A program made the position numbers and the translations under genes. 64,000 nucleotides of DNA from an uncultured cyanobacterium (GTDB taxonomy: Bacteria > Cyanobacteriota > Cyanobacteriia > Leptolyngbyales > Leptolyngbyaceae). The notes below the pieces were generated by a model that was given only the letters and a program-made list of their open reading frames with translations, did not search any database and was not told the origin of the DNA. The stretch is taken from NCBI GenBank assembly GCA_963766075.1, contig CAVYAN010000013.1:1-64000 (forward strand). Reading direction: 5' to 3'. This document shows positions 40,225-61,926 of the stretch, piece by piece; within the stretch, counting starts at the first letter, position 1; each line of letters starts with the position of its first letter.

Positions 40225-40256
40225 ATCTACGGTAAATCTACCGTGATTTAGTATTT
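40225..40256. promoter_or_regulatory. Putative sulfur-regulon box 1, upstream of cysK
   Basis: ATCTACGGTAAATCTACCGTGATTTAGTATTT (TAC-N20-GTA). Confidence 0.7.
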
Positions 40257-40308
40257 TTCATCGATATTTTATCGTCGAGCAGCGTTTTGATCAGGAGGTC
40301 AGGGTTGG

Positions 40309-41313
40309 ATGGGGATTGTTCACGATATCACGGCGTTGATTGGTCGGACTCCTTTAGTACGGTTGAACAGAATTCCTCAGGCTGAAGGGTGTGTTGCCAG
40401 AATTGTGATTAAGTTAGAAGGCTTAAATCCTTCGGCCTCCGTCAAAGACCGCATCGGGATTGGCATGATTCGGGCCGCTGAAGCAGATGGGCTGATCCAC
40501 CCCACGAAATCGATCTTGGTAGAACCAACTTCTGGCAACACGGGGATCGCCTTAGCCATGGTGGCCGCGGCTAAAGGCTATCGACTGATTCTGACCATGC
40601 CGGAAACCATGAGCAAAGAACGGCAACTAATGTTGAAAGGGTTTGGCGCAACCTTGGAGCTGACTCCAGGCCCGGAAGGCATGCAAGGCGCGATCGCTCG
40701 GGCCGAAAAAATTGTCGCTACCCTGCCCAATGCCTTGATGTTGCAGCAATTTTGCAATCCCGCCAATCCACGGGCCCATCGGGAAACCACCGCCGAAGAA
40801 ATTTGGGTTGATACAGCGGGCGATGTGGATATAGTCGTGGCCGGTGTGGGCACTGGGGGCACCATCACCGGCATCGCCGAAGCCCTCAAGGCACGCAAAC
40901 CGGACTTTCGCGCCATTGCCGTGGAACCGGCCAACAGCGCTATTTTAGGTGGCGGTGCACCGGGAGAGCACAAGATTCAGGGCATTGGGTCCGGGTTTAT
41001 CCCGTCGGTATTACGCGTTGAGCTAATTGATGAAGTGATTTCGGTGACGGATGAAGATGCGATCTCTTACAGCCGCAAACTCGCCCAGGAAGAAGGGATT
41101 CTGTCCGGGATCTCCACTGGAGCCGCACTCTGGGCCGCCTTACAGGTGGGCAAACGTACCGAAAATGCCGACAAACTAATTGTCGTGGTACAGCCCAGCT
41201 ATGGCGAACGCTATCTCAGTACGCCCTTGTTCCAAGAGTTGGGGACAGGCACGCTGGGGGTAACTAATGGCTATCGCAACCCGACCCTGACAGGTTCTCA
41301 GGTTTCTCAATAG
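40309..41313 (+). CDS. cysK: Cysteine synthase A
   Basis: PLP lysine in SVKDRIG, plus [15 protein letters not shown] and HKIQGIG motifs. AGGAGG RBS. Confidence 0.96.
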
Positions 41314-41359
41314 GGGTTCCCCCAACAGCTATTTCTTATGTAAGGTGATGTGAGGAAGT

Positions 41360-42166
41360 ATGAAAGTGACTCAAAAACACAACTCGACGATCTGGGCGCG
41401 ATCGCTCGTGGGCCTGGGCGCGATCGCCCTGACTGCTTGCACACAAGCCCTCGATACGTCCCAACTCGAAACCGACATTCGGCAAGCCATTCGGCAACAG
41501 GGTGGCAGCACACTCAAAGCCGTCACCTGTCCCAAAAACATTCAGCCCGTCGCCGGGAAACACTTTGACTGTATCGGCGAACTTGACTCCGGTGATGCGC
41601 TGGCGATCCCCGTCCAGCAGACGGCTCCGGGGAAGACCACCTGGGAGGTTCCCAATGCCAAGGGGTTACTCAACTTGGATCAACTGGCAGCCCTTTTTCA
41701 GCAAACGTTGCAGCAGGAAGGAAAACCCCTGACGGTGAACTGCGGTTCGGGCTATCGTTCTGTTCGACCGGGCGATAGTTTTGAATGCAAAGTCAAGCTT
41801 CCACCCAAGCCGAAACCGGGGCAATCCCCCGACAAGCAACCGGAAAAATCGGCTCAATCCGAATCCGGTGCGACACCAGACGCAGGGGCGATCGCCGTCA
41901 ATCAATCCCCATCGCCCAATCCGCCCAAATCCTCCAACTCGCTAAAGTCCCCTAAATCACCGGAGTTAATTACGGTGATGGTTGACCCCCAGGGCAATAT
42001 CAACTGGCAACAGGTCTTTCCGGCTTCGATCCAAGTTGCCGCCGCTAGTTCCACATCACTCGCTGCTGTCCCCGAAGCCTCCAAGTCTGACCCTGTTCAG
42101 GCCGCAGAGAATCGCAAAAATCTTTCAACGGAAGCACTGAACGACGTAGAACAGCGATCGGATTAG
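41360..42166 (+). CDS. DUF4333-like lipoprotein
   Basis: Lipobox LTAC, two Cys-paired repeats (VTCP..GKHFDC; VNCG..GDSFEC) and a Pro/Ser-rich region. Confidence 0.7.
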   Translation: MKVTQKHNSTIWARSLVGLGAIALTACTQALDTSQLETDIRQAIRQQGGSTLKAVTCPKNIQPVAGKHFDCIGELDSGDALAIPVQQTAPGKTTWEVPNAKGLLNLDQLAALFQQTLQQEGKPLTVNCGSGYRSVRPGDSFECKVKLPPKPKPGQSPDKQPEKSAQSESGATPDAGAIAVNQSPSPNPPKSSNSLKSPKSPELITVMVDPQGNINWQQVFPASIQVAAASSTSLAAVPEASKSDPVQAAENRKNLSTEALNDVEQRSD

Positions 42167-42239
42167 TGACCAGTAGGTCATAAATTTCACCAGGGTCTTG
42201 CGTTGCCACGGAAACTATGAGATTCTCCTAAGTTAGAGA

Positions 42240-42271
42240 ATCTACTACATCTATATCTAATTACCGTAGAT
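42240..42271. promoter_or_regulatory. Putative sulfur-regulon box 2, upstream of the TonB-like/exbBD unit
   Basis: ATCTACTACATCTATATCTAATTACCGTAGAT (TAC-N20-GTA). Confidence 0.68.
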
Positions 42272-42462
42272 TTATTAAATAGGAAATCTGGCATGGCGCG
42301 GCTTCTTTCTTTCGACGGTGAAAACCGCGCTCTGTTTGATCAAATTTACACCTCCGCGCGCTAGTAACCTCCAGGGATGACCGGCCTATGCCTGTCCTGT
42401 GTTCAAGATTGGGGGGTGATCTCCCCTCTGTGTCAACTTTATGCTCTGCTCACCTGTCTAGG

Positions 42463-43644
42463 ATGGAAGGAAAGCCCTTGTCTGCTCCAGAGAAACATCT
42501 ACAACCGCCCCATGGCAACCCAGAATCGCAGGATTTCGGGGGAGGTGCGATCGCCTCTATAAGTACGCCCGATCGCCTGCTGGAGGATGGGGCGACTGAG
42601 GGGCGATCGCCCTCTGCTGACATCCTGGAAGAATTCCCCGATGGAATTCAGCCTCTGTTTCCGATTCCCAAGTCGGCGGGGGGAGCCTCGCGGTGGATTT
42701 GGCTTGTGGCCTTGGTTTCAGCAGGGCTACATGGGGGCTTGATGCTGATTCCCACGGGGGAAGAATCGAAGCCACCGCCGCCTAAATCGTCCGAGCAACA
42801 GATTCGGATTACGCAATTACCCAACCTGACGAAGCAGCCAACGGTGAAACCTACGGCTAAACCTGTGGTCAAGGTCACTCCAGCGAGTACACCGCCCACA
42901 ACTCCGCCACTGCCCGTTGTCCAAGCCTCAGCGCCCCCGGCATCCACCGCTTTGCCCCCGGAGGGCACGACTGGAGAGAATCCCTGGAAAGACTTTCCTC
43001 TCTATCCCGGTTCGACGCCGGGATGTTTTGGGTTGTCGTCCTGTCTAGAAGCCAGTGTGGTGTTAAGTCAAGTGTCGTCTCACTTTGCCAGCCAACTCCC
43101 TATTCGCAAATATGAAGTCAAGCGGACTGTGCAGGAAACGGGGCGAGAAGTCTACCAAGTCTCTCGCAATGGGCTGTCTCAGTACCTCAGCATTATTGAG
43201 AATGGTAAAAATACAGTCTATGTGCTGTCTGATGCGCCCCGCACACTAGAGGATCTGGAAAAAGCCGTAGAGGTGCCTCCCGAAATCCTCAGCATTCTCG
43301 TATCCCTGGCGGTACAAAAAGCCGATGCGACGTATTTCGCTCAGCCGGATCAGTTCTATAGCAAGGCGGATGCTAAGAGCTTGAGTCCCGGGGCCTTGGT
43401 GCCGCGATCGGGGATTAGCAACATCAGTCTGGTCACAGGTCAAGCCGCAGACACAATGATGGATGAGTTTCTGCGTTCTAATCTGCAAAACAACGAATTT
43501 GAAGTGACGGATCTACCGCAAAAGTATGGTGGCGGACCGGTGTATAAATTGCAAAAAGCCAGCCAAACCCTATATCTCAACCTCATTCCAACTAAAGATA
43601 ATAGCGGCACGTTGCTTGTGTTCTGGAAAACACCGCCCAGTTAA
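42463..43644 (+). CDS. TonB/TolA-like membrane-anchored Pro-rich protein with an atypical C-terminal region
   Basis: TM helix with the SxxxH motif (LVSAGLHGG), Pro/Lys/Thr-rich linker, located directly upstream of exbB/exbD. Confidence 0.6.
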   Translation: MEGKPLSAPEKHLQPPHGNPESQDFGGGAIASISTPDRLLEDGATEGRSPSADILEEFPDGIQPLFPIPKSAGGASRWIWLVALVSAGLHGGLMLIPTGEESKPPPPKSSEQQIRITQLPNLTKQPTVKPTAKPVVKVTPASTPPTTPPLPVVQASAPPASTALPPEGTTGENPWKDFPLYPGSTPGCFGLSSCLEASVVLSQVSSHFASQLPIRKYEVKRTVQETGREVYQVSRNGLSQYLSIIENGKNTVYVLSDAPRTLEDLEKAVEVPPEILSILVSLAVQKADATYFAQPDQFYSKADAKSLSPGALVPRSGISNISLVTGQAADTMMDEFLRSNLQNNEFEVTDLPQKYGGGPVYKLQKASQTLYLNLIPTKDNSGTLLVFWKTPPS

Positions 43645-43710
43645 TCATCCTTTCATTAGTTAATTCGCCCTCGTCCTGACTTCCCTGTTTATCCTTCTTC
43701 CTCTCCTCCT

Positions 43711-44398
43711 ATGTCTACTGTCTTTACCTAATTTCCAAAGGTGGTCCCGTTATGATTCCGGTGGTGGGACTGTCGATCGCCACCTTTGCTTCTGCGATGG
43801 AACGGGCCATTTTTTGGTTTCGGGTGCTCCGTGTAGAAAACAAGATTGTGCATGAGGTGCTGAATGCGGCCCACTACAACTTGGAAGCGGCGGCGGCGAT
43901 CGCCTATAAAGCTCAAAATCAACCGATTGGCCGCTTTCTATTTTCGGCGTTGCAGTTGCAAGATCCCACGCCTGAGACCTTTCGGCTAGCGTTGCAAACT
44001 GCTGGAGAGGATGAGTTTGTCCAGATGCGACGGGGTAATCGGCTGCTGGAAACTGTGGTAGCGATCGCGCCGCTGCTGGGTTTGCTGGGCACCGTCAGTG
44101 GTCTGATTCTAACCTTTGCAAATTTAAAACTGGCGGGGGTGGCTCTTCGGTGGATACCTCCAAAGCAGCGGCAGGGATTGGGGAAGCCTTGGTGACCACG
44201 GCGGGCGGTATGGTGGTGGCGATTATTGCCCTGGCTTTTTTACGAGTCAACACCACCTTGCAGGGCAAACAGGTGGAGTATTTCGCGAAGGTCGCGGGTC
44301 GGCTAGAGCTCATTTATCGTCATATTTGGTATGAGCGATCGCCGGTTGATGATGGGCGTAATCCATGGCGATCGCGATTTGCCAATCGCGAAGTGTAA
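43711..44398 (+). pseudogene. exbB: ExbB/TolQ/MotA proton-channel protein with two single-base deletions (~43726 and 44126-44129)
   Basis: KGGPVMIP, APLLGLLGTVSGLI and GIGEALVTTAGGMVVAI lie in successive frames. Adding 2 nt restores about 229 aa. Confidence 0.8.
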
Positions 44399-44466
44399 TC
44401 GCAAAGTATCACGCTCTCACGGACTATGTCTCGCCCATTTCCATCCCTCTTCTCCGCACACTGCCC

Positions 44467-44877
44467 ATGTCTTACTTCAACTCTTCCAAATCCGAATCGC
44501 AGATTCCAGAGGTAAATCTGGTGCCCATGATGGATGTGATTATGACGATCCTCACGTTCTTTATCATTGTTTCCATGACCATGACGGATTTTCAATCGGT
44601 GAATGTGCCGTTACCCAAAACAGAGAAGGGCGCGAGTAAGGACAAGGTCCCCGATCCGATGGTTGTGGCTTTGAATCAGCAGGGACAGATTTTGCTCAAA
44701 AATCAAAATACCACCCCTGAGCAATTGGCTCAGCAGGTGGTGGCGTACCTGAACCAAAATCCAAAGGGTGCCGTTGTGCTGAAAGCCGATCGCACATTGT
44801 CCTACGAGAAAGTGGTACAGGTGCTGGGGACAATTCGGGATGTAGGCGGCGATCGAGTTTCCTTGGCGATTGAATAG
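44467..44877 (+). CDS. exbD: Biopolymer transporter ExbD/TolR
   Basis: EVNLVPMMDV (conserved Asp) and LKADRTLSYEKVVQV. Confidence 0.9.
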   Translation: MSYFNSSKSESQIPEVNLVPMMDVIMTILTFFIIVSMTMTDFQSVNVPLPKTEKGASKDKVPDPMVVALNQQGQILLKNQNTTPEQLAQQVVAYLNQNPKGAVVLKADRTLSYEKVVQVLGTIRDVGGDRVSLAIE

Positions 44878-44898
44878 TCGGTTTGTCCCTGAATAATC

Positions 44899-46485: not shown

Positions 46486-47337
46486 TTAATTTGAATCTCC
46501 TAAATGTCGTAACACCTCTTGACAGACAAGGGTGAGCAGTGCAATCAGAGTGAGCAAAGATGCACAGGCAAAGGCAGCTACGGTTTGGTATTCCATATAC
46601 ACGCGCTCAATGTGCAGCGTGAGCGTATTGGTTTCGTGAATGATTTTGCCAGACACAACCGCAACAGCCCCAAACTCGCCCAAGGCCCGCGCTGTGCACA
46701 ACACGACACCATACAAAACCGCCCAGCGAATATTTGGCAGGACCACCCGCCAGAACGTTTGCCAGGAATTCGCCCCCAGGGTTTGGGCCGCTTCTTCCTG
46801 CTCTGCACCCATACTTTCTAGGGCGGGCAGCACTTCCCGCACCACAAAGGGTAGGGTGATAAACAGCGTCACCAAAATCATGCCCGGTAGAGCAAAGATA
46901 ATTTTCACGTTCAGGGCCAAGACCCAAGTCTGAAACAGACTATCCGTCTGGCTGTACAACAGGATAAACATCAACCCAACAATCACCGGAGAGATGGTCA
47001 AGGGCAGATCAATTAAGCCGAGGATTAGGGATTTTCCGGGAAAGCGGTGGCGGGCCAGCAACCACGCGGTGAAGATGCCAAAGGCAGTGTTGATCGGCAC
47101 CGTTGCCAGCATAATCACCAGCGTTAGCCCGATCGCATGCAGGGCATCTGGATCCTGCAAACTGGTGCTGTACGCCACCAGCCCCTGGGCCAATGCCTGG
47201 TAAAAGATATTCACCAAGGGCAATCCCACCACGATGCCCAGAAATCCCAGTCCCACAGCATTGAGGAGATATTCTCCCCACCGGGTAGACCGCGCCGCTT
47301 TGCTCATCCCGGCCGCTTTGGCAATCCTATTCAGCAT
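46486..47337 (-). CDS. cysW: Sulfate ABC permease CysW
   Basis: IDLPLTISPVIVG, EEAAQTLGA, ARALGEFGAV and TLTLHIE motifs. Confidence 0.9.
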   Translation of the reverse strand: MLNRIAKAAGMSKAARSTRWGEYLLNAVGLGFLGIVVGLPLVNIFYQALAQGLVAYSTSLQDPDALHAIGLTLVIMLATVPINTAFGIFTAWLLARHRFPGKSLILGLIDLPLTISPVIVGLMFILLYSQTDSLFQTWVLALNVKIIFALPGMILVTLFITLPFVVREVLPALESMGAEQEEAAQTLGANSWQTFWRVVLPNIRWAVLYGVVLCTARALGEFGAVAVVSGKIIHETNTLTLHIERVYMEYQTVAAFACASLLTLIALLTLVCQEVLRHLGDSN

Positions 47338-48231
47338 CGGGACCTTCCCAACGATGGCTCCAGGCTTGCACCAGATTGGCGCATCCCAGCAATAGCAATG
47401 ACAACGTCAGGAGGACGATTGCCACCGCCGTTGCCCCACTGTAGTCAAATTCTTCCAATCGTTGAAAGATATAGACCGTTGATACGAGGGTTACAAAGGG
47501 CGTGTTGCCTGAAATCATAAAAATAATGCCAAACTCACCAATACCGCGGGCGATCGCTAACGTAAATCCGGTCAAAATCGCGGGTAATAGCTGGGGAAAG
47601 AGAATCCGCCAGAAGGTTTGCCATGTCCCCGCCCCCAGGGTATGGGCGACTTCCTCGATCTCCGGTTCCACTCCAATAAAACGGGCTGTACGGTGCGAAC
47701 AACAAACGGTAAGGATGAAAAAACCTGCGCCAAGAGCACGCCCCAAAATGAAGCCGTGAGATTGACTTCGGTGATGCCAAACCGCTGGAAAAAATTAGCC
47801 AAGGGCGTTTCCGGATCCAGAAACTGCCCCAGCGCCCCACCCGGACCATACAGGGTCAGCAAGGTGATACCTGCAACCACACCCGGAACAGCAAACGGGA
47901 GATCGACTAATCCATCCGCCAGCCGTCGCCCGGGAAACCGATGGCGCACCAAAATCCAGGCCAGAATAAACCCAAACACGCTGTTAATCAAGGCCGCCAT
48001 GAAGGCACTGAAAAAGGTCAGGCCATAGGCATGGACGGCAATGGGATGGGTGACCAATGCCCACAGATCGGTGAGCGGACGCTGTGACGCTTTCCAGAAG
48101 AGACTGGCGATCGGCAACAGCACCATCAAGCCCAAGTAGGTAAACACCATTCCCCAGCCGAGAAACGCGGCGTGGGGGCGCACGGCATGGATGTTGGCAG
48201 GTGTGACCGTTGGGGACATCAGAGATTTCAT
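47327..48231 (-). pseudogene. cysT: Sulfate ABC permease CysT with one single-base deletion (~47670)
   Basis: VDLPFAVPGVVAG and LPFVVRTVQPVL, then EPEIEEVAHTLGA..ARGIGEFG in the next frame. Adding 1 nt restores about 301 aa. Confidence 0.85.
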
Positions 48232-48241
48232 GGGCGATCGC

Positions 48242-49255
48242 CTATTGACCCACTGCCGCTCGTTGGGCTACGTCAAACAACGCACCATCGGCAAACACAT
48301 CCCGATTCACCTGTTTCCACCCGCCAAAATCTGCAACGGTATAGAGCTTTTGCACCGGTTGGTACTGCTTTTGGAATTGCTGATAAACGGCGCGATCGCG
48401 GGGACGATACCCCACCTGGGCAAAGATTTGCTGCGCCTTAGGGGTGAACAGGAACTGGGTAAAGGCTTCGGCGACAGGCCGCGTCCCCCGCTTGTCTACG
48501 ACTTTATCGACCACGGTGACGGGGAAATCCACTTGGACATTGGGGGACGGGGCAATGTAGGGAAAGTCGCGGGGAATGACATCGTTGGTGAAAATAATTT
48601 CATTCTCAAAGTTGATCATGACATCGCCTAAGCGATTCCGAATAAACGTGTCCGTAGCCTCTCGCCCGCTATTGACGAGGGATTTACTGTTTTTGACTAA
48701 CCCGTTCAGGTATGCGCGCGCTTTTTCCGGGCCTTGGGCTTTGAGAATGGAGCGATATCCCGCCAGGATGCCCCAGCGAGCATTGCCGGAAGTTTTGGGA
48801 TTAATCGCCACCAGGTGGATGTCGTTACGGGTTAAGTCTTGCCAAGTACGCAACTGCTTGGGATTACCGGGACGGGTCACCAGCACCATCACGCTGGTCA
48901 TGGGAATGCTATTGTTGGGCAAACGTTTCTGCCAATTGGCATTGACAAAACCGTTCTCAACCAATAAGTCAACAGCAAACTGGGTATTAATCGCAAAAAT
49001 ATCGGCATCCAGGCCCGCCAGAATCGATCGCGCCTGGGGGATCGTTGGCCCGTAGGATTCTTTGAAAGTGACGGTTTGCCCGGTTTTCTCCTTCCAGTAC
49101 TTTTGAAATTCTGGAATAATTCGAGAATAGGCAGGCTTGGCCACGTTGTAGCTCACCAGGGTCAGTTCCACAGGTGCAGGGGTTTGGGCAAAGCTGGGCA
49201 GAACCACCGAGAGTGATCCCACTAAACCGAGTAAAACATGACGACGTTTGATCAT
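48242..49255 (-). CDS. sbp: Sulfate/thiosulfate ABC substrate-binding protein (divergent)
   Basis: LTLVSY, RPGNPK, NPKTSGNARW, GREAT, FENE and FGGW motifs; upstream of cysT/cysW. Confidence 0.88.
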   Translation of the reverse strand: MIKRRHVLLGLVGSLSVVLPSFAQTPAPVELTLVSYNVAKPAYSRIIPEFQKYWKEKTGQTVTFKESYGPTIPQARSILAGLDADIFAINTQFAVDLLVENGFVNANWQKRLPNNSIPMTSVMVLVTRPGNPKQLRTWQDLTRNDIHLVAINPKTSGNARWGILAGYRSILKAQGPEKARAYLNGLVKNSKSLVNSGREATDTFIRNRLGDVMINFENEIIFTNDVIPRDFPYIAPSPNVQVDFPVTVVDKVVDKRGTRPVAEAFTQFLFTPKAQQIFAQVGYRPRDRAVYQQFQKQYQPVQKLYTVADFGGWKQVNRDVFADGALFDVAQRAAVGQ

Positions 49256-49547: not shown

Positions 49548-49579
49548 AACTACGGTTTGTCGATAGACTTGCAGATGTA
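49548..49579. promoter_or_regulatory. Putative sulfur-regulon box 3, upstream of sbp-cysT-cysW
   Basis: AACTACGGTTTGTCGATAGACTTGCAGATGTA: left arm and TCGATAGA core match the consensus, right arm is degenerate. Confidence 0.6.
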
Positions 49580-49665
49580 TAGAATTCTACGGAGAGGGTT
49601 GGGCACTGTCAAGCCGAATGCTGTAAATCGTCCCAAAATGTTAGATCAGGTTAGATTGGCAGTTT

Positions 49666-51732: not shown

Positions 51733-52887
51733 TTACAAAACCGTCGTGTGGCTGGAATACTGACGTTTGATACCAAAGTAGGTTTTCCAGTGGTGCCAAG
51801 CGCGTTGGCCTGTAATTAGCTCTTCGGCATAGGCGGATTGAGTGAATAGGGGGAATGGAGTCGTATCGACACCGATGCCTGTCCGCAGGCGTTCCCGCCG
51901 CTGATCGGCTAACCAATCGTTGTAGCTTTCATACACAATATGGCCATCGGGGGCATCTAAGGTAGCCGCCCGAATGCGTGCATCTAACTCCTCGTAGCGT
52001 TGTTGCTCAGCAGTCGAGAGGACCAGTGGCTCGACCTCGACCTCATACCCCAGTTGCGTCAATTCTGCTCCCGCGACACCCGCGAAGATGCGCTGATCGC
52101 GAAGACTCAGCAGATCTTTGTAGAGGCCGATGTAGCGATCGCTAATGGGATGTCCGAGCGGCCTATGATCCCGTGCCTGGGCCCGACGTTGGGCAATATC
52201 CGTTTGGTGAAACTCCAGCATGACTGGATCGTAGGGTTCACCCAAAAAGTGACATACGGTTTGGATCGTTTTCTCTGGCTCACGCACCAGGGTTTCATAG
52301 CGCACATCCAGCCATTGATGACTGGATAGCTTTTCCCGCCAGGGCTTAACCGTATCCTGGCAGAGTTGCCAAATTGTGGCGGCACTGTAGATATTCGTGG
52401 GGCCAAAGGAGGATTCCAGATATTCAGCACTGACATCACGGCCATCGCGGGTCAAGTAAATGAACTGAGCATTGGGAAAATCACTCAGAATGGCATCGAT
52501 AAAAAACAAGTTGAAGGGCGTCTTTTCGCCCCAGCGGGGTTTGCCTTTGTAATCGGCATACCAGCCCAACACGGCGGCGTATAGCCCACCAAAGCTTAGC
52601 TCCGGCAGGTGTTCCAGAATTTCATCCACAATAGTTCTGGGATTCACCGGCACGCCCCAAAAGGGTGTCTTTAGTCCAAAAATTAGCTCTTCGGTTAAGG
52701 TGCGCAAGCGATCGGGGTCGGATAAATCCCCATAGGTATGCAGATAGGGATAAAAGCGCGGGTAGAACCAGGCAACTTCGGGCACGGCTATGCGGGGATG
52801 GCAGCCGAGAATTGTCATTAGCAGGGTGGTGCCCGATCGCTCGGCTCCAATAACAAAAATCGGTGGGTCAGACAATTGAATCGTCAT
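51733..52887 (-). CDS. Sulfotransferase-family protein
   Basis: 5'-PSB loop IGAERSGTTLL, WGEKTP, 3'-PB RDGRDV and VRYETLV..PE motifs. Confidence 0.88.
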   Translation of the reverse strand: MTIQLSDPPIFVIGAERSGTTLLMTILGCHPRIAVPEVAWFYPRFYPYLHTYGDLSDPDRLRTLTEELIFGLKTPFWGVPVNPRTIVDEILEHLPELSFGGLYAAVLGWYADYKGKPRWGEKTPFNLFFIDAILSDFPNAQFIYLTRDGRDVSAEYLESSFGPTNIYSAATIWQLCQDTVKPWREKLSSHQWLDVRYETLVREPEKTIQTVCHFLGEPYDPVMLEFHQTDIAQRRAQARDHRPLGHPISDRYIGLYKDLLSLRDQRIFAGVAGAELTQLGYEVEVEPLVLSTAEQQRYEELDARIRAATLDAPDGHIVYESYNDWLADQRRERLRTGIGVDTTPFPLFTQSAYAEELITGQRAWHHWKTYFGIKRQYSSHTTVL

Positions 52888-52926
52888 GGGTCGTTTTCCG
52901 GGTTGAGAAGGGTTGTCTCCAGAGCA

Positions 52927-53923
52927 CTAGCTCAGTTGCGATGCGGCTTGTGCTCTGGTGTGAATTGCATCGATCGCCCGCTGGGCATAGATCGACACCT
53001 CGCGATCGGGATCATCCAACGCTTGTTGCAGGGCGTTGAGGGCATCGGCGTTGCCGAGTTGGCCGATCGCGATCTGTGGCTTCCTTCCGCACATCTGAAA
53101 ACTCATCCGCCAATGCTTGAATCAATGCCTGAATCAGATCGGGTAATAGGTTATTACTGAGCGGTTTTTGGGGCGTTTTTTGCAATGCTTGGAGGACAAA
53201 CTTGCGCACCTGCCAATGGGCATCCTGGAGAGCGATCGCCAGCGCTGGTAGGGCCTCTGGATGCGCCTGGATGGCCAAGGACTTAGCCGCATTGCGCCGC
53301 ACCTGCCAATCCGTATCCGAGGTCACCGCCTGACTCAACTGGGCAATCACGCCCTCATCACTCAAATGCCCCAAGGTCAGCACCACCTCCCGCCGCACCG
53401 TCGCCTCCGGATCTGCGAGTAAATCAAACACCGGAGGACAGAGATCGACCTGATTGAGATAGCGTAAAGTAGTCACCGCCGCTGCTCGCAACTCCGGATC
53501 GGCAGATTGAAAAAAGGGCAGAATGGCAGGCAATGCCTGGATATCGTGAATCTTGCGCAACAGAATGAGAATACTTTTCTGTGCGAGGGGGTGTTGCAAG
53601 CTGTCTAGCAATAACAACAGATGATCCGAGGTAATCAATTCTCCTAAAGCTGACTGGGCAACATCCCGAATTTCGGCATCCTCCGAGGCCAAACTGGCGA
53701 GTAACGCGGGCACGGCTTCGGGGTTGGCGAACTCCCCCAACACAGCGATCGCCAATTTTTGGACTCCCAGATCTGGATCCTGAAGGGCCGTTATGACGGG
53801 CGCGATCGCCGCATCATCCGCCAGATGCTGCAGGGTTTTGAGGGCGACTAGGCGATCGCTGACCGTGGGCGATCTTAACAGTTCTATCCAGGGAGTCAGT
53901 TCGTCATTAAGGGCGATCGACAT
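52927..53923 (-). pseudogene. HEAT-repeat protein with a +1 insertion (~53074) near the 3' end
   Basis: Repeats ..DxDxxVRxxAxxaLG. The last repeat IAIGQLGNADALNALQQALDDPDREV continues in the shifted frame to TAG at 52927. Confidence 0.82.
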
Positions 53924-53968
53924 GATGTTGGCTCAAGAAATTTGGCTCAAAAAGTTTGGCTCAAGAAA

Positions 53969-54196
53969 TTACCTCAAAAGAAAGGGAATTTGCACCGTGA
54001 TGGCATTAGTGGGACACTCTTTTTCACAGGGCAAACAGAACCAGCATTCGTCGTATTTCATGTAAGCTTTGCCCGTTTCGGGGTCTTTAGCCAGCACATC
54101 CAAGGGGCAGACCTCAATACAGGCCGTGCATTTCTCTAAACATTTCGATTCATCGACAATGACGGGAACATCGACCCGTTGCGTTGCTAATGCCAT
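53969..54196 (-). CDS. 2x[4Fe-4S] ferredoxin (AprB/AsfB-like)
   Basis: CLEKCTACIEVCP and CWFCLPCEKECP motifs. Confidence 0.9.
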   Translation of the reverse strand: MALATQRVDVPVIVDESKCLEKCTACIEVCPLDVLAKDPETGKAYMKYDECWFCLPCEKECPTNAITVQIPFLLR

Positions 54197-54298
54197 AACT
54201 AAAAAGATTTCCTTTGGTTCATAATTTACTCCAGGGGACATTACACTAGACGTTTGCCAACTGAATGCCCTTTGTCTCTTTCTTAATTTGCATCCTCC

Positions 54299-56044
54299 TT
54301 ACCGAGCGGCGACATCATAAACTTCCGTTTGAATATCAACATCGACTACATAGGGTTCAACGGGACGCTTGAGTAACACCATATTGCCCGATGCATCCTG
54401 TTGCAAATTGACATGGCAAAACCACTCTTCATTGTTCTTTTCAGGATAATCGACTCGATAGTGATACAGTCCCCAGCGACTTTCACGCCGATAGAGCGAC
54501 GCCCGCGCCGCCATTTCAGCACAATCTCGAATGAAATGTACCTCCATACAGCGCATTAATTCATGAGGATCCCGTGCCCCCATTTGATCCAGAGTTTCGT
54601 GATACCGGACAAAATTATTCAACCCAATTTCCATTTTGTTCGTGACCTTGGGCGGCTGCAGATAATCATTCACCAAACGCCGCAGTTTATACTCCACTTG
54701 GGTATGGGGAATCCCATTCGGTCGAGTCAGAGGCGCATAGACCCGCGTTTTTTCGGTTTCTAGAGCCTCCGGATCTGGCTCTTGATGTTCCAAATCTTGC
54801 AAATACTGCACCGCATGCTCCCCCGCCAAGCGACCAAACACAAAGGCCCCAATCATGTAATTGTGCGGCACGCTGGCGAGATCCCCGGCGGCATACAGTC
54901 CTGGCACCGTGGTTTCGGCGTTTTCGTTCACCCACACCCCGGAGGCGCTGTGACCGCTGCACAGGCCAATTTCGGAAATGTTCATTTCGATGCTGTGGGT
55001 GCGATAGTTTTCACCCCGTCCAGCATGAAAGCGATCGCGACTCGGACGCTCATTCGCCCACAAAATCGACTCGATTTCAGCGATCGTATCTTCATCTAGA
55101 TGGGTCATTTTGAGCTGGATCGGGCCTTTACCGGAGTTGAGTTCTTTCCAAACCTCCAGCATCATTTGCCCGCTCCAATAATCGCAATTGATGAAGCGGT
55201 AGCCTTCGGCATTGGCGGTATAAGCCCCAAACGGCCCCGCCACATAGGCACAGGCTGGCCCGTTGTAGTCCTTAATCAAGGGATTAATTTGGAAGCATTC
55301 AATATTCGTCAGTTCCGCACCTGCGTGGTACGCCATCGAGTAGCCATCGCCAGCATTGGTAGGGTTTTCGTAGGTGCCATACAGATAGCCAGAGGCTGGC
55401 AATCCTAGGCGGCCACTGGCTCCTGTGCAGAGGATGACGGCTTTGGCTTGAATGATCACGAAGTCGCCACTGCGGACATCAAACCCCACGGCTCCGATCG
55501 CCCGTCCCCCTTGCACCAATACCCGTGTGGCCATCACCCGATTGGTCACGCGAACTTTATGCCGTTTGACTTGGCGCGTCAAAATCGTTTTTAGATCTTT
55601 CCCCTCGGGCATGGGTAATACGTATTTCCCCACCCGATGCACTTGTTTGACATCGTAATTGCCCTGGGCATCCTTTTGAAACTGCACCCCCCAGCTTTCT
55701 AGTTCCTGGATGGTTTCGTAGCCTAGTTTTCCGGTTTGTAAGACAGCTTTTTGGTGCAGGATGCCATCATTGGCGATCGTCACTTCTCGCGTATATTTTT
55801 CCGGCGTGGAATGCCCCGGAATCACGGCAGTGTTCACGCCATCCATACCCATGGCGATCGCGCCACTGCGGCGGATATTGGCCTTCTCCAAAATCAGCAC
55901 ATCGGTGTCAGGATTAGCCTGTTTTGCCTTAATCCCCGCCATTGTGCCCGCTGTGCCACCGCCAATCACCAAGACATCGGTTTGGACCCGTTGCGTCTTG
56001 ATCGCCAGATCAGGGATAGAAAGAGGATGAATGGACTGCGACAT
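54299..56044 (-). CDS. FAD flavoprotein of the fumarate reductase/APS reductase family (AprA/AsfA-like)
   Basis: IGGGTAG, RSGAIAMGMDGVN (compare AprA RSGAVAQG), PGLYAAGD and RRESRWG..HYRVDYP. No SdhA covalent-FAD SHT motif. Confidence 0.85.
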   Translation of the reverse strand: MSQSIHPLSIPDLAIKTQRVQTDVLVIGGGTAGTMAGIKAKQANPDTDVLILEKANIRRSGAIAMGMDGVNTAVIPGHSTPEKYTREVTIANDGILHQKAVLQTGKLGYETIQELESWGVQFQKDAQGNYDVKQVHRVGKYVLPMPEGKDLKTILTRQVKRHKVRVTNRVMATRVLVQGGRAIGAVGFDVRSGDFVIIQAKAVILCTGASGRLGLPASGYLYGTYENPTNAGDGYSMAYHAGAELTNIECFQINPLIKDYNGPACAYVAGPFGAYTANAEGYRFINCDYWSGQMMLEVWKELNSGKGPIQLKMTHLDEDTIAEIESILWANERPSRDRFHAGRGENYRTHSIEMNISEIGLCSGHSASGVWVNENAETTVPGLYAAGDLASVPHNYMIGAFVFGRLAGEHAVQYLQDLEHQEPDPEALETEKTRVYAPLTRPNGIPHTQVEYKLRRLVNDYLQPPKVTNKMEIGLNNFVRYHETLDQMGARDPHELMRCMEVHFIRDCAEMAARASLYRRESRWGLYHYRVDYPEKNNEEWFCHVNLQQDASGNMVLLKRPVEPYVVDVDIQTEVYDVAAR

Positions 56045-56116
56045 GATTCTCCTAGGGTAAACACACCGATAGAACGGGCAACTTGCTGGGCCGATGAGTT
56101 GCCCGTTTCACAACAT

Positions 56117-57196
56117 TTAAGAAGCGCCTTTCCAGATGGCATCCTCAATCTTGATCGGTTTCGGAATCAGCTTGATGGCTTGAAATGTATCAGCGATCTT
56201 TTGTTGATTGCTAATCACCTCTGGTGTGAGCGGGAGTACGCCATATTCCCGGCGCTTTTCGGCCTTTTCCAAAATAGCGGCATCAATGCCTAGTTCTGGA
56301 GCTAGGAATTTAGCCACCTCTGCCGAATTTGTTGCAGCCCAACTACTTTCTTTTTTCACTTCATCCAGAACCTGCTTCAGGGCTGCCGGGGACTTATCGA
56401 CAAAGGACTGCGCGGCGAGATAGTACCCTCGGTTAGGGGCTAGCCCGGTTGCATCCACCAAGACACGCGCATTGGCTTGGGCTTCCGCCGCTGCTAGGTA
56501 GGGATCCCATATCGCCCAGGCATCAATATCCTTCCGCTCAAAGGCTGCGCGTGCATCCGCTGGCTTGAGAAAACTGAATTGAATATCCTCGGGTTTGAGA
56601 CCTACCGATTGCAGTGCACTCACGATCAAATAGTGCGTGTTCGAGCCTTTAGCCACGCCTACCTTTTTGCCTTTTAAATCCGTAAGGGTTTTGAGGGGAG
56701 AGTCCTGGGGCACCACGATCGCCTCGGCCTTCGGACTCCAGGGATCGTAGGCTACGTAACGCACAGGCACACCCGTCGCTTGGGCAATAATCGGCGGGGA
56801 TTCGCCTGTGTAGCCAAAGTCCACCGAACCTGCATTGAGAGCTTCCAGCATAGGCGGCCCCGCCGGAAATTCAGTCCAGGTGACTTTGGTCCCTGATGCG
56901 GCAAAGGCTTTTTCTAGGCTCTGCTTGGTTTTCAACGAACTGAGGATGGTCGCGGCTTTTTGATAACCGATGCGCACCGTAGTGGCGCTGGTTGCGGCAC
57001 TCGAAGCTGCGGGTGAAGCGGAGGGTGAAGCCGCCGTGGGAGTCGGGGTATTAGAAGAACAGGATGAGACAATGAGGCTCAAACTCAGGCCGATCGCAAA
57101 AAAGTAGGTCAATGAGCGTCCGGAGAGTGACGAAAATTGATTCCAGATGAATTTGAGTGTGTTGAACAGGGAACGAATCTTGAATTGAGTAAACAC
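56117..57196 (-). CDS. ssuA: Aliphatic sulfonate ABC substrate-binding lipoprotein
   Basis: Lipobox VSSC, RIGYQK, EFPAGPPMLEALNAGSVDFG, KGS and WAIWDPY motifs. Confidence 0.92.
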   Translation of the reverse strand: MFTQFKIRSLFNTLKFIWNQFSSLSGRSLTYFFAIGLSLSLIVSSCSSNTPTPTAASPSASPAASSAATSATTVRIGYQKAATILSSLKTKQSLEKAFAASGTKVTWTEFPAGPPMLEALNAGSVDFGYTGESPPIIAQATGVPVRYVAYDPWSPKAEAIVVPQDSPLKTLTDLKGKKVGVAKGSNTHYLIVSALQSVGLKPEDIQFSFLKPADARAAFERKDIDAWAIWDPYLAAAEAQANARVLVDATGLAPNRGYYLAAQSFVDKSPAALKQVLDEVKKESSWAATNSAEVAKFLAPELGIDAAILEKAEKRREYGVLPLTPEVISNQQKIADTFQAIKLIPKPIKIEDAIWKGAS

Positions 57197-57276
57197 CTTG
57201 AAGCTCCTAAGAACAATGTATTAAGCAGGTTGAAGGGGATGTTGAATCTCCAGTTGAATCTCCATAGGCTCTAGTC

Positions 57277-57843
57277 CTAACTGGCGAGGAGCAGCGGTTC
57301 AGCAACTGGGGCGGAGGGTTGCACCGCTGCGATAAATTCCTGCAAAGACTGTTGCAACCGCTGCTCAATTTCTTCCTCAAGCTGAATACTGCCGTCTTCC
57401 TGCTTCTGAATCTGCTTGTCGATCGCGTACACCGTGGTAATAAACTGCCGCGCACCCAATTCAGACAAAACGGGCTTGAGGGCATAATCGATCGCTAAGA
57501 AGTGCGCCAGTGTCCCTGCAGTGGCGATCGGGAAAATTACTTTTCCGACCAATGCTTTTTGGGGAAACAGATCCAGCAAGGCTTTGAGGACTCCGGTATA
57601 AGCCGCTTTGTAAATGGGAGTTGCAATAATCACGCCATCGGCTTGGGCGAGCAACTGCTTAAGCTTTTCCAGGGCAGGGCTGTCGTATTGTCCGTAGGCC
57701 AACACCTCGGCAGGGATATCCCGCACGGACAAAATCTCTGTTTGTATACCCGCTGCGTGCAATTGCCGTGTGGCGTATTCCAACACACTGTAGGTGCGGG
57801 AGGGATGGGTTGGGCTGCCTGCGATCGCTAAAATAGTCGTCAT
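57277..57843 (-). CDS. ssuE: NADPH-dependent FMN reductase
   Basis: AGSP..PSRT, ATPIYKAAYTGVLK and HFLAIDYALKPVL motifs. Confidence 0.93.
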   Translation of the reverse strand: MTTILAIAGSPTHPSRTYSVLEYATRQLHAAGIQTEILSVRDIPAEVLAYGQYDSPALEKLKQLLAQADGVIIATPIYKAAYTGVLKALLDLFPQKALVGKVIFPIATAGTLAHFLAIDYALKPVLSELGARQFITTVYAIDKQIQKQEDGSIQLEEEIEQRLQQSLQEFIAAVQPSAPVAEPLLLAS

Positions 57844-57989
57844 GAGAACACCTGATTTCGTAAATTAGAGCAATGAGTTCGAGCTATGAGGTTAGTGACA
57901 TTCAATCGATGAGATTGCGCCAGTCATTAGAGATTGATCGAACCCATCGAGCCAGAGGATCTAGGGGATACAGACTCAATCAACCGTGC

Positions 57990-59150
57990 TCAATCAACCG
58001 TAGTTAGCGGCTGCAACGATGGTGATGGGGGAAAAGTTTCATTGGCAACCACTTCGCCAAACGGACTGAATAGGACTTGCCGCTCTAATTGCGGTTGATG
58101 TTCTAGCGGTAAATGGGGGAACAACAGTTCAGCGACACGATAGGCTTCCTCCAGATGGGGATAACCCGACAGAATGAACGTCTCAATTCCCAAGTCGCGA
58201 TATTCTTGCAACCGCGCCGCAACGGTTTCAGGATCGCCTACCAGCGCTGTTCCGGCCCCACCCCGGACCAATCCCACCCCAGCCCAAAGGTTAGGACTGA
58301 TTTCCAAAGCTTCCCGATTGCCACTGTGGAGTTGGGTCATTCGGCGTTGCCCTTCCGAGTCCATCCGGGCGTAGGCTTTTTGCGCGGTGGAGATCGCCGT
58401 CTCATCCACATACCGAATCAATTGATTGGCGGCATCCCAGGCTGCGGATTCCGTTTCCCGAACAATGATGTGCAGCCGAATGCCAAATCGCAGAGTCCGA
58501 CCTGCGGCCGCGGCCCGTTGCCGCACCGCCTCTATCTTTTCCGCTACTTGGGCAGGTGCTTCGCCCCAGGTGAGGTAGACATCCACATGTTTGGCGGCGA
58601 TGTCCTGGGCAATGGGCGAAGACCCGCCAAACCAGAGAGGCGGATGGGGCTGCTGTAGCGGTGTAAATAGGAGCTTCCCTCCCTGCACATCCAGATAATC
58701 GCCCTTAAAGTTAGACTCTTTCCCCTGGGAAATTTCTCGCCAAACCGTGAGAAATTCATCGGTGAGGCGATAGCGATCGTCATGACTGAGATGGACCCCA
58801 TCTCCTGCCAATTCAACGGGATCACCACCGGTAACGACATTAATGAGTAACCGCCCCCCAGTCAGACGATCAAAGGTTGCTGCCATCCGTGCCGCGACAC
58901 CGGGAGACATCAAGCCGGGACGAATGGCCACCAAAAATTTCATCTGAGTGGTATGAGCGGCCAAATAGGACGCCACCACCCAGGCATCCTCACAGGAGCG
59001 GCCTGTGGGGAGCAACGCCCCTACGTAGCCGAGGCGATCAACAGCTTGGGCAATCTGGCGGAGATAGGTGGCATCAGTCGAACGCCCCCCAATCCCAGTT
59101 CCCAGATAACGACCGTCTCCATGAGTGGGAATAAACCAAAAAACTTGCAT
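57990..59150 (-). CDS. ssuD: FMNH2-dependent alkanesulfonate monooxygenase
   Basis: [43 protein letters not shown] and SGYPHLEE motifs. Confidence 0.96.
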
Positions 59151-59335: not shown

Positions 59336-59367
59336 AACTACTGTAACTTGATCGGGTTACAGTAGTT
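59336..59367. promoter_or_regulatory. Putative sulfur-regulon box 4 (perfect 12-bp arms), upstream of the ssuD operon
   Basis: AACTACTGTAAC-TTGATCGG-GTTACAGTAGTT. Confidence 0.75.
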
Positions 59368-59623
59368 GTTGCGACTAGGAGTATGTCACAGATCCTCTAG
59401 ACACACAAGTACTTCCGAAATTTTGACAGTTTCGAGATTTTTCCTGGCTAGGGTAAGGCCTGCGGTTTACTCTAGCCAGCCATTAGGTCTGCACAAATCC
59501 TTCATCAGGTCTGTCCAAACGCTTCAGACATCATCTGTTTCGTGGCCATGATGGGCTACCAATTTTGGTTACCAAATTACTTGCAATCACTCCGTTGATG
59601 TGCGAAACTCCTGTGTTACAGGC

Positions 59624-59655
59624 AAGTACGGTATCTCGATAAAGTTTTCGTACTT
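59624..59655. promoter_or_regulatory. Putative sulfur-regulon box 5, upstream of ssuC
   Basis: AAGTACGGTATCTCGATAAAGTTTTCGTACTT (TAC-N20-GTA). Confidence 0.7.
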
Positions 59656-59669
59656 TGTGCAGGCTAATT

Positions 59670-60494
59670 ATGGCAACTCCCCTTTCCTTTCCTAGCTCTC
59701 GGTTTTCTTTCGCGCGCACCGTATTACACGGGCTACCTCTCAATGCTGTGGTGCCGTGGGGCATTCCCTTTCTGTTCATTGTGTTCTGGCAATTATTGGT
59801 ACAGTTCGGTTGGATTTCCACTCGTGTATTGCCATCTCCAACGGCTGTGATCCAGGCCGGTCTGCATTTAGCCAGTACCGGCGAGCTAGTGCAGAATGTT
59901 AAGGTGAGTGCATTGAGAGCGCTGATTGGGTTTGCGATCGGGGGATCAATTGGCTTTATTCTAGGGTTGCTCAATGGTACGTTTCATCTGTCCGAACGTT
60001 TGTTAGACACGTCGGTGCAAATGCTGCGAAATATTCCGCACTTAGCTATGATTCCGCTGGTGATTCTCTGGTTTGGGATTGGTGAGGAAGCCAAGATTTT
60101 CTTAGTGGCCATAGGCGTACTTTTCCCAATTTATCTCAATACCTTCCATGGGATTCGTACCGTTGATGCCGGGTTGTTAGAGATGGGAAAAGTGTATGGG
60201 TTGAAACCGCCAGAGCTATTCTGGCAGATTGTTTTGCCCAGTGCGCTGCCTTCTATTTTGGTTGGCGTTCGCTATGCCCTTGGCATCATGTGGTTGACAC
60301 TGATTGTGGCGGAAACGATCGCTAATGATGCGGGCATTGGTTATATGGCCATGAACGCGCGGGAGTTTCTGCAAACGGATGTTGTGGTCTTTAGCATTTT
60401 GCTGTACGCCCTACTGGGGAAGATGGCAGACGCGATCGCGCGGTGGTTGGAAGCACGGTTGCTGCAATGGCATCCCAGTTATCAGGAGGGTTAA
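59670..60494 (+). CDS. ssuC: Aliphatic sulfonate ABC permease
   Basis: LRNIPHLAMIPLVILWFGIGE, LPSALPSILVGVR and GIGYMAMNAREFLQTD motifs. Confidence 0.93.
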   Translation: MATPLSFPSSRFSFARTVLHGLPLNAVVPWGIPFLFIVFWQLLVQFGWISTRVLPSPTAVIQAGLHLASTGELVQNVKVSALRALIGFAIGGSIGFILGLLNGTFHLSERLLDTSVQMLRNIPHLAMIPLVILWFGIGEEAKIFLVAIGVLFPIYLNTFHGIRTVDAGLLEMGKVYGLKPPELFWQIVLPSALPSILVGVRYALGIMWLTLIVAETIANDAGIGYMAMNAREFLQTDVVVFSILLYALLGKMADAIARWLEARLLQWHPSYQEG

Positions 60495-60497
60495 TCC

Positions 60498-61273
60498 ATG
60501 GGGCATGGCATTGATTTAAAAGTTCTGGGCTTGAATAAGTCCTTTGGGACAAAGCCAGTTTTACAGGATTTGAACCTGGAGATTCGTCCGGGGGAATTTG
60601 TGGTGATCGTTGGCCGGAGTGGCTGTGGTAAAAGTACACTTCTACGCCTAGTGTCTGGATTGGAACGGCCCACCCAGGGTGGTATTTGGGTAAATGGAGA
60701 GCCCGTGCGGCAGCTGAATCCTGCCGTGCGGATGATGTTTCAGGATGCGCGACTTTTGCTCTGGAAGCGGGTCCTACAGAACGTTGGCTTGGGGTTGCGA
60801 GGGTAACTGGGTTCCCCGAGCCCACCTCGCTTTGGCACAGGTAGGCTTGGCAGACCGAGCGAATGATTGGATTGCAGTATTGTCGGGGGGACAGCGGCAA
60901 CGGGTGGCCCTAGCTCGGGCTTTAGTCAGTCAACCCAGTCTGTTGCTGCTAGATGAACCCCTGGGTGCTCTGGATGCCCTGACCCGGATTGAGATGCAAC
61001 GGTTGATTGAAAGTATATGGCAGGATCAGCACTTCACGACGCTGTTGATTACCCATGATGTGGAAGAAGCCGTGACCTTGGGCGATCGCGTGGTGCTTCT
61101 CGAAGCAGGACAGGTTGCCCTCGATCTGGCAGGTGCCCTTAGCTCGTCCGCGCCATCGGGGAGATCCCGCCTTTGCCGCCCTTGTGGAACAAATCTTGCA
61201 GCGAATTCTCCAAAGTGACGATGCGCTCTCACGCCCGCCAGTACCAGAGGGACTGTTTGTCTATTCAAATTAA
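60498..61273 (+). pseudogene. ssuB: Aliphatic sulfonate ABC ATPase with two +1 G insertions (60801-60803 and 61128-61129)
   Basis: [27 protein letters not shown] and [15 protein letters not shown]. Removing 2 nt gives about 257 aa ending ...[12 protein letters not shown]...YSN*. Confidence 0.85.
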
Positions 61274-61585
61274 TAAGCGATTTTCTTGCCCTTCAAGTCT
61301 GCCATGGTTTTTATCGGTGAGTCAGGCTTCACCAAAACAGCGGAACTTTGATCTTTGGGCGCACTACCGCCCACGTAGACCGAAGGCACACCGGTAGCCC
61401 GGGCGATCACCGGAGGCGCGTCACCCGCGCGGGTGACGTCAATCCCAGCCTGACAGCACCAAGCTGAAACTGAGGGCGATCGCAAATAAAAAAGAAAAGG
61501 TTCGTGGTGTTGCTTGGCACCAGAACCTTGATGTTCGTTTGAGGAGAGTCAACAAGACAGCTTGAAGCGGAAAGGCAGAATAACG
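61270..61585 (-). pseudogene. Remnant of a second ssuA-like binding protein
   Basis: Signal-like SFLFAIALSFSLVLSG is joined out of frame to GIDVTRAGDAPPVIARATGVP...PDSPIKTMADLKGKKIAY, which is homologous to the intact SsuA in this window. Confidence 0.7.
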
Positions 61586-61636
61586 TAACTAATCATCCTT
61601 TTAAAGTTTAAGGATGTGGTGAATACAGAGCAAGAA

Positions 61637-61668
61637 ATCCACAGTCTCTTTATTGATTTACCGTATTT
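61637..61668. promoter_or_regulatory. Putative sulfur-regulon box 6, upstream of the ssuA remnant
   Basis: Reverse complement AAATACGGTAAATCAATAAAGAGACTGTGGAT. Confidence 0.68.
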
Positions 61669-61894
61669 AAGCTTGGAGAGGAGCGTTCCACGGATCGCTG
61701 AGTGTGTAAAGTACATTCGCTACAAAATTCTGGATTGGTAAGACGCGCCCATCTGAATCCAGTGATTTAGGCGTGCTGGATTCAGATGAACTCGGAGACG
61801 GATGCACTGCAACCGGGTGTATTTACGCAGGGGGAAAAATGTAGTAATTGTTCTTGTTTTTTCAAAGGACGCATGTGATGATAGTCATCAAGCT

Positions 61895-61926
61895 AAATAC
61901 GGTAATTCTATAGAGAAGCCGTAGAT
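61895..61926. promoter_or_regulatory. Putative sulfur-regulon box 7, upstream of the porin
   Basis: AAATACGGTAATTCTATAGAGAAGCCGTAGAT (TAC-N20-GTA). Confidence 0.72.

Follow-up and report, generated by a model that had tools for sequence, protein, structure and literature searches.

What joins the sulfur genes of a cyanobacterial gene island into one regulatory unit, and which protein reads the signal that they share? The question is raised by a stretch of 64,000 nucleotides from an uncultured member of the Leptolyngbyaceae (positions 1 to 64,000 of contig CAVYAN010000013.1, assembly GCA_963766075.1; hereafter the window), in which a palindromic box of 32 bp occurs seven times between positions 40225 and 61926, among genes for sulfate and sulfonate uptake and cysteine synthesis. 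A preliminary description of the window interpreted the boxes as the operator of a trans-acting regulator of sulfur starvation. This view is borne out by a matrix scan of this genome and related genomes, which matches almost only sulfur genes, and the box is very probably the operator of a sulfur regulon. As the protein that binds it, we favor a Crp-family regulator, P0001, which is encoded outside the window.

All seven 32-mers are found in the window at the positions first described, and each of them is intergenic and located upstream of a gene. Box 1 (40225..40256; 31.4 bits) lies 52 nt upstream of cysK, and box 2 (42240..42271; 31.5 bits) lies 116 nt upstream of the gene for a 418-aa Pro-rich protein; both are also matched by a covariance model. 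Box 3 (49548..49579; 28.1 bits) is positioned 292 nt upstream of sbp and starts 4 nt past a near-consensus -10 element. Box 4 (59336..59367), 185 nt upstream of ssuD, is the best site of the genome, with 41.7 bits, a covariance-model E value of 4e-6 and arms that are perfect over 12 bp. Box 5 (59624..59655; 33.9 bits) lies 14 nt upstream of the ssuC ATG at 59670, box 6 (61637..61668; 27.3 bits) fronts a genuine ssuA remnant, and box 7 (61895..61926; 35.5 bits) is found 85 nt upstream of a porin gene. The TAC-N20-GTA spacing is exact in five of the seven boxes (40228, 42243, 59339, 59627 and 61898), and six carry a central AT. The first 40 kb, where the motif had not been noticed, yields no matrix match (window positions 1-40,000), and none of the 24 window open reading frames (ORFs) scanned between 38 and 64 kb contains a DNA-binding regulator domain, consistent with an island that encodes no regulator of its own.

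Is the box more than a chance palindrome? The bare TAC-N20-GTA pattern alone is not significant, with eight occurrences in the window versus 4.2 ± 1.8 after shuffling (4 of 100 shuffles reach eight). The complete motif is significant, and when each of the seven sites is left out in turn, it scores 25.6, 27.2, 14.5, 35.3, 29.6, 20.2 and 36.1 bits. The genome scanned (G000) comprises 5.05 Mb in 126 contigs and is 85% complete. A symmetrized matrix of the seven sites retrieves nine further genome sites of at least 20 bits, where 30 column-permuted matrices retrieve 0.47 on average; at 17 bits or more it retrieves 12 further sites, compared with 1.3. The refined matrix identifies 18 genome places at 23.7 bits or more, the next best match scoring 16.0 bits. 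A covariance model that uses sequence alone, derived from 38 sites in several genomes, produces 35 matches at E<=10 in this genome, which correspond to the same 18 places on both strands and to nothing else. A weak second box-like palindrome of 16.0 bits (C15:1915-1946, L002) is located 80 nt upstream of the sbp3 box at 1995.

The consensus of the box consists of two halves, A-AACTACkGTAAnTCGA and TCGAnTTACmGTAGTT-T, that meet at the symmetry axis. With 70 distinct sites, the motif gains one base at either end and reaches 34 bp, where conservation ends. The strongest positions are C6 and G27 (2.5 bits, 99%), followed by C14, A16, A5 and G8.

All 18 boxes of the genome adjoin sulfur-related gene sets or the gene of the Crp-family regulator, with a small unknown ORF among the neighbors. 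Six box sites at five loci belong to four sbp genes and one sbp fragment, the sbp of the window included. Outside the window, the boxes front three sbp genes, the sbp fragment, a second cysK and an operon of rhodanese, YeeE and Cys/Met-lyase genes, in addition to the small unknown ORF, the Crp-family regulator gene and a cpcB-cpcA-linker-linker operon. Two of these regions, C13:65985-66996 at the end of the window's contig and C80:383-1400 at a contig start, are paralogous; the boxes at C13:65985 and C80:383 are identical, and the second box of the pair differs at 3 of 32 positions. This paralogy reflects either a recent duplication or an assembly repeat. The preliminary description had expected further copies at cysA, sat and sir. 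None was seen in this 85%-complete genome, and only the cysA part of the expectation found an echo elsewhere, as cysA-like ATP-binding cassette (ABC)/TOBE genes are boxed in G029 and G080.

A second phycocyanin operon (C80:5776-9960, L003), which is composed of orf100, cpcB, cpcA and two linker genes, carries a box 13 nt before orf100. Its products are depleted of Met and Cys: CpcB contains two Cys and one Met, CpcA contains one of each, and the linkers contain no Cys and one or two Met. The corresponding Cys/Met counts of the housekeeping phycocyanin operon on another contig are 3/5, 2/3, 1/6 and 1/3. The order box-orf100-cpcB is also found in G080, a genome of the same family (L051). We take the boxed operon to be the sulfur-sparing phycocyanin known from Calothrix. 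The cpc3 operon of Calothrix/Fremyella, reportedly described by Mazel and Marliere in 1989 and by Gutu et al. in 2011, is likewise a second, sulfur-depleted cpcBA-linker operon without Met and Cys save for the bilin-binding cysteines and the start Met. The operon of the present genome has a specific box in front of the small ORF that heads it, whereas cpc3 is not known to have a reported regulator or operator. No other single finding ties the box to the sulfur-starvation response as strongly as the sulfur-stripped phycocyanin operon.

How widely is the box distributed? In samples of 151 genomes each, with this genome counted in and a match defined as E <= 0.05, boxes are present in 35 genomes of the phylum sample and in 58 genomes of the class sample. 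They are often grouped in sulfur islands of 20-60 kb, as in G041:C1:1336872-1393853. A neighbor survey of five other genomes from four families covered 42 sites of at least 14 bits, and 36 of the 42 box-side ORFs scanned have a Pfam match. The families found are SsuD- and SsuA-like proteins, Sbp, CysA-like ABC/TOBE proteins, rhodanese, CysK and TauE, and further chromate transporter, MgtC, GST, porin and Mrp-type NTPase, along with three families of regulators. On plasmid pANL of Synechococcus elongatus, the four best matrix matches (20.8, 17.5, 13.4 and 12.5 bits) are all intergenic and fall in the sulfur-regulated part; the first two lie upstream of the cysK operon and of an Rrf2 gene, and the other two are weaker. 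As occurrences of the box, the pANL matches are suggestive only. No description of the box was found in the literature searched, including the available parts of PMC11420160, PMC12016511 and PMC3590769; older papers outside that literature, among them ones on pANL and cpc3, may contain promoter or operator data.

Does the palindrome act as DNA or as RNA? Several boxes probably lie inside transcribed leaders, and the best copy could form a 12-bp stem, as expected of a hairpin in the 5' leader that controls stability or translation. However, the two halves of the box exhibit no base-pair covariation. In 76 rows (38 sites on both strands) with a 14-bp stem, 65.4% of the cells pair, compared with 65.7 ± 1.0% when the letters of the 3' side are shuffled, and 302 of 500 shuffles reach or exceed the observed value. 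Because pairing does not rise above the shuffled level, each half is conserved towards the consensus independently, as in protein-binding palindromes. Moreover, many sites combine one good half with one poor half, Rfam returns no match at E<=1, and an RNA element was rejected on the grounds of pairing and the empty Rfam search. A dispersed repeat of the HIP1 type or a miniature inverted-repeat transposable element, without a regulatory role, was also dismissed, given that the genome holds no more than 18 copies, each of them beside a sulfur-related gene or the regulator gene, and that sequence rather than structure is kept across families. An RNA hairpin or a dispersed repeat is thus an extremely improbable account of the palindrome.

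Which protein binds the box? The candidate P0001 is a Crp-family regulator of 196 aa (C74:38199-38789, minus strand) with Pfam matches to HTH_Crp_2 (8.6e-16) and Crp (1.5e-11); its match to cNMP_binding reaches only 6.7e-4, under the Pfam cut-off. A box ends 2 nt before the P0001 ATG. This arrangement is conserved, as 28 of 30 ortholog loci from other genomes contain a site of at least 12 bits within 1.5 kb on either side, mostly at the gene start. In an Iningainema metagenome-assembled genome, the ortholog is 58% identical and a 31.5-bit site ends 3 nt before its start. In contrast to the ortholog, the nearest paralogue of P0001 has not even a 6-bit site in any of 20 upstream regions, nor do these regions share a k-mer motif. 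Furthermore, gene and box occur together. In a sample of 150 Cyanophyceae, with orthologs defined by E<=1e-50 and tallied by hand, 25 of 27 ortholog-bearing genomes are motif-positive. Twenty genomes qualify as box-rich (at least four matches and a best E <= 1e-3), and 19 of them encode the Crp ortholog, G047 being counted through gene context (E 1e-46).

The recognition helix of P0001 provides a further link. NtcA, the nitrogen regulator of the Crp family in cyanobacteria and the closest solved relative of P0001 (2xgx, E 2.6e-10), has the helix STRVTVTRLL, and P0001 has TTRVTVTRIL, which keeps the four base-contacting residues in the pattern R-V-x-x-T-R. In the accessible part of PMC11850224, these R, V, T and R residues of NtcA are described as the base contacts that read GTA, with R186 reading the invariant G. 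The sulfur box is built from the same GTA/TAC triplets, in the form of TAC.GTA units. The two regulons would also resemble each other in that a nutrient stress controls dozens of genes marked by a palindrome. P0001 is not NtcA itself, as it scores 48.8 bits on the NtcA NCBIfam model, for which the cut-off is 245, and the genome carries a separate NtcA gene. The Crp-family protein P0001 is probably the binder of the box.

The positions of the boxes bear on the mode of action. A sigma-70-type promoter, TTGACA-17-TAGAAT (11 of 12 positions; 49584..49612, minus strand), reads into box 3 and ends 4 nt before it, so transcription of sbp would start inside the box. Eight of the 18 genome boxes end at a distance of 2-33 nt from a start codon and are separated from it by a Shine-Dalgarno sequence, so that an upstream activator position is ruled out for these eight genes. 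NtcA sites are centered at -41.5; the sulfur boxes, unlike these, sit at or past the start site. Given that boxes lie just past a -10 element or 2-20 nt before start codons, the layout argues for repression, and we consider a repressor the better guess. In the mechanism that we propose, the Crp-family protein would bind the box while sulfur suffices and block RNA polymerase or promoter escape. Upon sulfur starvation, the regulator would leave the DNA, and its release would switch on sulfate and sulfonate uptake, cysteine synthesis, the porin and the ExbBD-type system, together with a phycocyanin nearly free of Met and Cys. The regulator would also repress its own gene.

Several observations weigh against a Crp-family repressor, the first of which is geometry. 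The invariant C6 and G27 are 21 bp apart, the G:C pair is 11 bp away from the axis (NtcA: 7), and the inner GTA..TAC spacer measures 12 nt, compared with 8 for NtcA. The palindrome spans 32-34 bp, as opposed to the 14 bp of the NtcA box GTA-N8-TAC and to the 14-22 bp of Crp/FNR-family operators, whose half-sites are spaced by about one helical turn. The half-sites of a canonical Crp dimer are about 11 bp apart, and with the half-site spacing of the box, one such dimer cannot read it. Reading it would take two dimers or another arrangement, which is speculation. As to tandem NtcA-type sites, no conserved GTA/TAC triplets flank the box, and nothing is conserved past position 0. The box is a new regulon operator of an ordinary kind, and its geometry is unexpected if the Crp assignment holds.

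The second difficulty is posed by genomes that keep the box without the gene. Three genomes of one genus (G104, G086 and G065) retain 30-39-bit boxes at sbp, tauE and a Cys/Met pyridoxal-phosphate (PLP)-enzyme gene, and neither an intact P0001 ortholog nor the CymR-like Rrf2 regulator Rrf2-A was found in them. Around one box, the sequences of the three share about 95-98% identity, and by reason of this near-identity a recent loss may be a sufficient explanation for the missing ortholog. At G086:C1:5285500-5289500 (L063), the Crp gene survives only as a C-terminal remnant of 94 aa, next to two DDE transposase fragments, and the sbp and tauE boxes remain. The ortholog was also not found in the box-rich genome G413, which is 96% complete. 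In addition, 32 of the 123 genomes that lack the ortholog have one or two weak matches. Among them are all seven sampled genomes of genus g73 (G272, G415, G447, G462, G475, G487 and G499; 2.2-3.5 Mb), each with one or two weak matches (E 0.011-0.044) and none with a P0001 ortholog found; these matches may represent one conserved look-alike locus.

The third difficulty concerns the mode of action and a second regulator. A promoter scan revealed no box-adjacent promoter in 59100-62100, where the three promoters found are at chance level, nor in L002 or L006, and the sbp promoter is the only one confirmed. At 1-8 nt upstream of the boxes, TAnnnT shows no more than a mild enrichment, and there is no fixed spacing from -10 to box. 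The Crp-family regulator CysR of S. elongatus PCC 7942, tied to sulfate transport and to sulfur-regulated pANL genes in the available part of PMC11420160, acts as a positive regulator according to the portion of PMC12016511 at hand, which conflicts with a repressor role if P0001 is the CysR ortholog. Finally, the Crp gene is not the only boxed regulator gene, as that of Rrf2-A is boxed too.

Could a protein other than these two bind the box? A regulator of another family, or a heteromeric complex, might read it, with both boxed regulator genes as mere members of the regulon. The 34-bp geometry suits neither a canonical Crp dimer nor Rrf2 sites, which span 23-29 bp. Moreover, boxes persist in the clade of G104, G086 and G065 without either candidate, and a LysR gene is divergent from Rrf2-A in G080. 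However, only two regulator families recur beside boxes in the six genomes inspected, and the Crp ortholog follows the box-rich genomes in 19 of 20 cases. We regard such a third binder as quite unlikely.

The preliminary description had judged the long dyad to be compatible with an Rrf2/CymR-like protein, and a CymR-like repressor is an alternative. In this case, Rrf2-A, alone or with a ubiquitous Rrf2 paralogue, would bind the box, and the Crp gene would be only a target that encodes a starvation-induced activator acting elsewhere. In Bacillus and Staphylococcus, cysteine metabolism is under the master repressor CymR, an Rrf2 protein. It recognizes a long AT-rich palindrome at the promoters of genes for sulfur uptake and cysteine synthesis and represses when sulfur suffices. 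Most Rrf2 proteins repress and have long palindromic sites, which would suit the box positions. Gene context also points to Rrf2-A. In G041 and G071, Rrf2-A and the Crp gene diverge from each other, and two boxes separate them. In G047, Rrf2-A is located directly downstream of the boxed Crp gene and carries no box itself, and in G080 a separate box is found 80 nt upstream of it. The Rrf2 gene of pANL (38% identity) has the 17.5-bit box-like site 32 nt upstream. Among equivalog NCBIfam models, CymR is the best for Rrf2-A with 100 bits, a score below the cut-off and lower than that of the generic Rrf2 superfamily; among solved structures, CymR ranks second after the BadM/Rrf2-family entry 4cic. 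An Rrf2 repressor would, furthermore, reconcile the positive role of CysR.

The distribution of the Rrf2 genes speaks against this assignment. Rrf2-A occurs in only 11 of the 20 box-rich genomes, so that it is dispensable for box upkeep in the other nine, and the genomes that lack it include the one-contig genome G411, the six-contig genome G500 and G467, the closest relative of the present genome. It is also missing from the complete genome G029 and was not found in the present, 85%-complete genome, and wherever Rrf2-A occurs among the sampled genomes, the Crp ortholog is present too. The ubiquitous Rrf2 paralogue, whose helix and wing are nearly identical to those of Rrf2-A, is encoded in 120 of 151 genomes and does not predict boxes. 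It is unboxed in all six genomes checked and present in all five box-less genomes tested, where the model matches only at chance level. With no box of its own and a presence in box-less genomes, the general Rrf2 protein is disfavored as the binder. In many cyanobacteria, the regulon of the box includes a CymR-like Rrf2 gene. The box differs from the CymR system in its host, a cyanobacterium, and in its sequence, which is presumably unrelated to the CymR site. An Rrf2 binder is unlikely, and the Crp-family gene, which has a box at its own start, is a better candidate than Rrf2.

How does the Crp-family candidate relate to CysR? The CysR (Synpcc7942_1684) system, which includes a sulfur iModulon, has sbp, cysTW, cysK, rhodanese, MgtC and chromate-transporter families in common with the boxed genes of this genome and its relatives. 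CysR is described as positive in the available part of PMC12016511, whereas the positions of the sulfur boxes suggest repression. The CysR regulon's structure is called undefined in the accessible portion of PMC11420160 (2024), and the words 'motif' and 'binding site' do not occur in those parts of its text and supplements that were available; neither of the two papers searched names a binding site. NCBIfam has no CysR model. An attempt to trace CysR orthology through small-genome lineages was abandoned, as the distant P0001 homologues there adjoin PstS-like genes rather than sulfur genes. In G374 and G326 (L079 and L082), such homologues lie directly downstream of genes for PstS-like phosphate-binding proteins, and their best model is PtrA, so that they represent a counterpart for phosphate rather than a sulfur regulator.

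Which functions would the regulon control in the window? The first box is followed by cysK (40309..41313, plus strand), an O-acetylserine sulfhydrylase-type PLP enzyme (Pfam PALP 3.3e-71). Behind box 2, the 418-aa Pro-rich protein, exbB in two frames and exbD are encoded at 42388..44877 (plus strand; Pfam MotA_ExbB and ExbD). The preliminary description placed this TonB-like system in the sulfur regulon, and its membership is supported by the boxed ExbBD set and by a homologue of the 418-aa/ExbBD set that comes after a boxed sbp in G080. The label 'TonB-like' itself lacks such backing, as the 418-aa protein has no Pfam or NCBIfam match and the ESM Atlas gives only unnamed cyanobacterial clusters. 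The sulfate ABC transporter genes sbp, cysT (two frames) and cysW occupy 46486..49255 on the minus strand (Pfam SBP_bac_11 and BPD_transp_1; ORF map).

A long gene string at 51733..59150 (minus strand; Pfam and NCBIfam) encodes SsuD, an SsuE-like flavin mononucleotide (FMN) reductase, SsuA, an AprA/FrdA-like flavin adenine dinucleotide (FAD) flavoprotein, a HEAT-repeat protein and a sulfotransferase. These genes lie on one strand, all downstream of box 4. The boxed island of G041 holds homologues of the flavoprotein (88% identity), the HEAT protein and Mrp. The flavoprotein (54299-56044, minus strand), located inside the ssu string, scores 1015 bits on NCBIfam PRK08275, 'fumarate reductase/succinate dehydrogenase flavoprotein', and AprA is weaker; its 88%-identical copy in G041 adjoins a boxed ssuA. 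An HNH endonuclease gene and a small upstream ORF (50868-51655, minus strand) are located between the Mrp-type NTPase and sulfotransferase genes, with no box near. On the opposite strand, ssuC and a frameshifted ssuB are found at 59655..61218 (plus strand; Pfam and frame analysis). The ssuA remnant (61279..61443, minus strand) is 47% identical over 55 aa to the intact SsuA (tblastn E 1.3e-12). The last of these genes encodes an SLH-OprB porin (62012..63934, plus strand; Pfam OprB 2.6e-49 and SLH). Its proposed place in the sulfur regulon holds up, as box 7 lies upstream and a porin homologue is boxed in G041, a genome of another family.

Several window genes are split into two frames, namely cysT (47327-48231), exbB (43752-44398) and ssuB (60498-61218), and the NtcA gene at C120:12058-12637 is split likewise. 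Such splits are either real pseudogenes or assembly errors in this 85%-complete, 126-contig genome.

The sensing of sulfur limitation by cyanobacteria and the response to it are poorly defined. The Crp/NtcA-type protein may well be the long-missing master regulator of cyanobacterial sulfur starvation, acting as a repressor on an unusually long, 34-bp palindrome, probably as more than one dimer, with a regulon that would include the sulfur-sparing phycocyanin switch, the porin and ExbBD-type uptake. The conserved operator makes it possible to define the sulfur regulon of many cyanobacteria at the level of sequence, and it names testable candidates for the regulator. It also predicts new members of the regulon, including the porin, the TonB-like/ExbBD set, the AprA-like flavoprotein, the Mrp-type Fe-S carrier, TauE, MgtC and the chromate transporter. 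Furthermore, the box offers a tightly sulfate-controlled promoter element for engineering.

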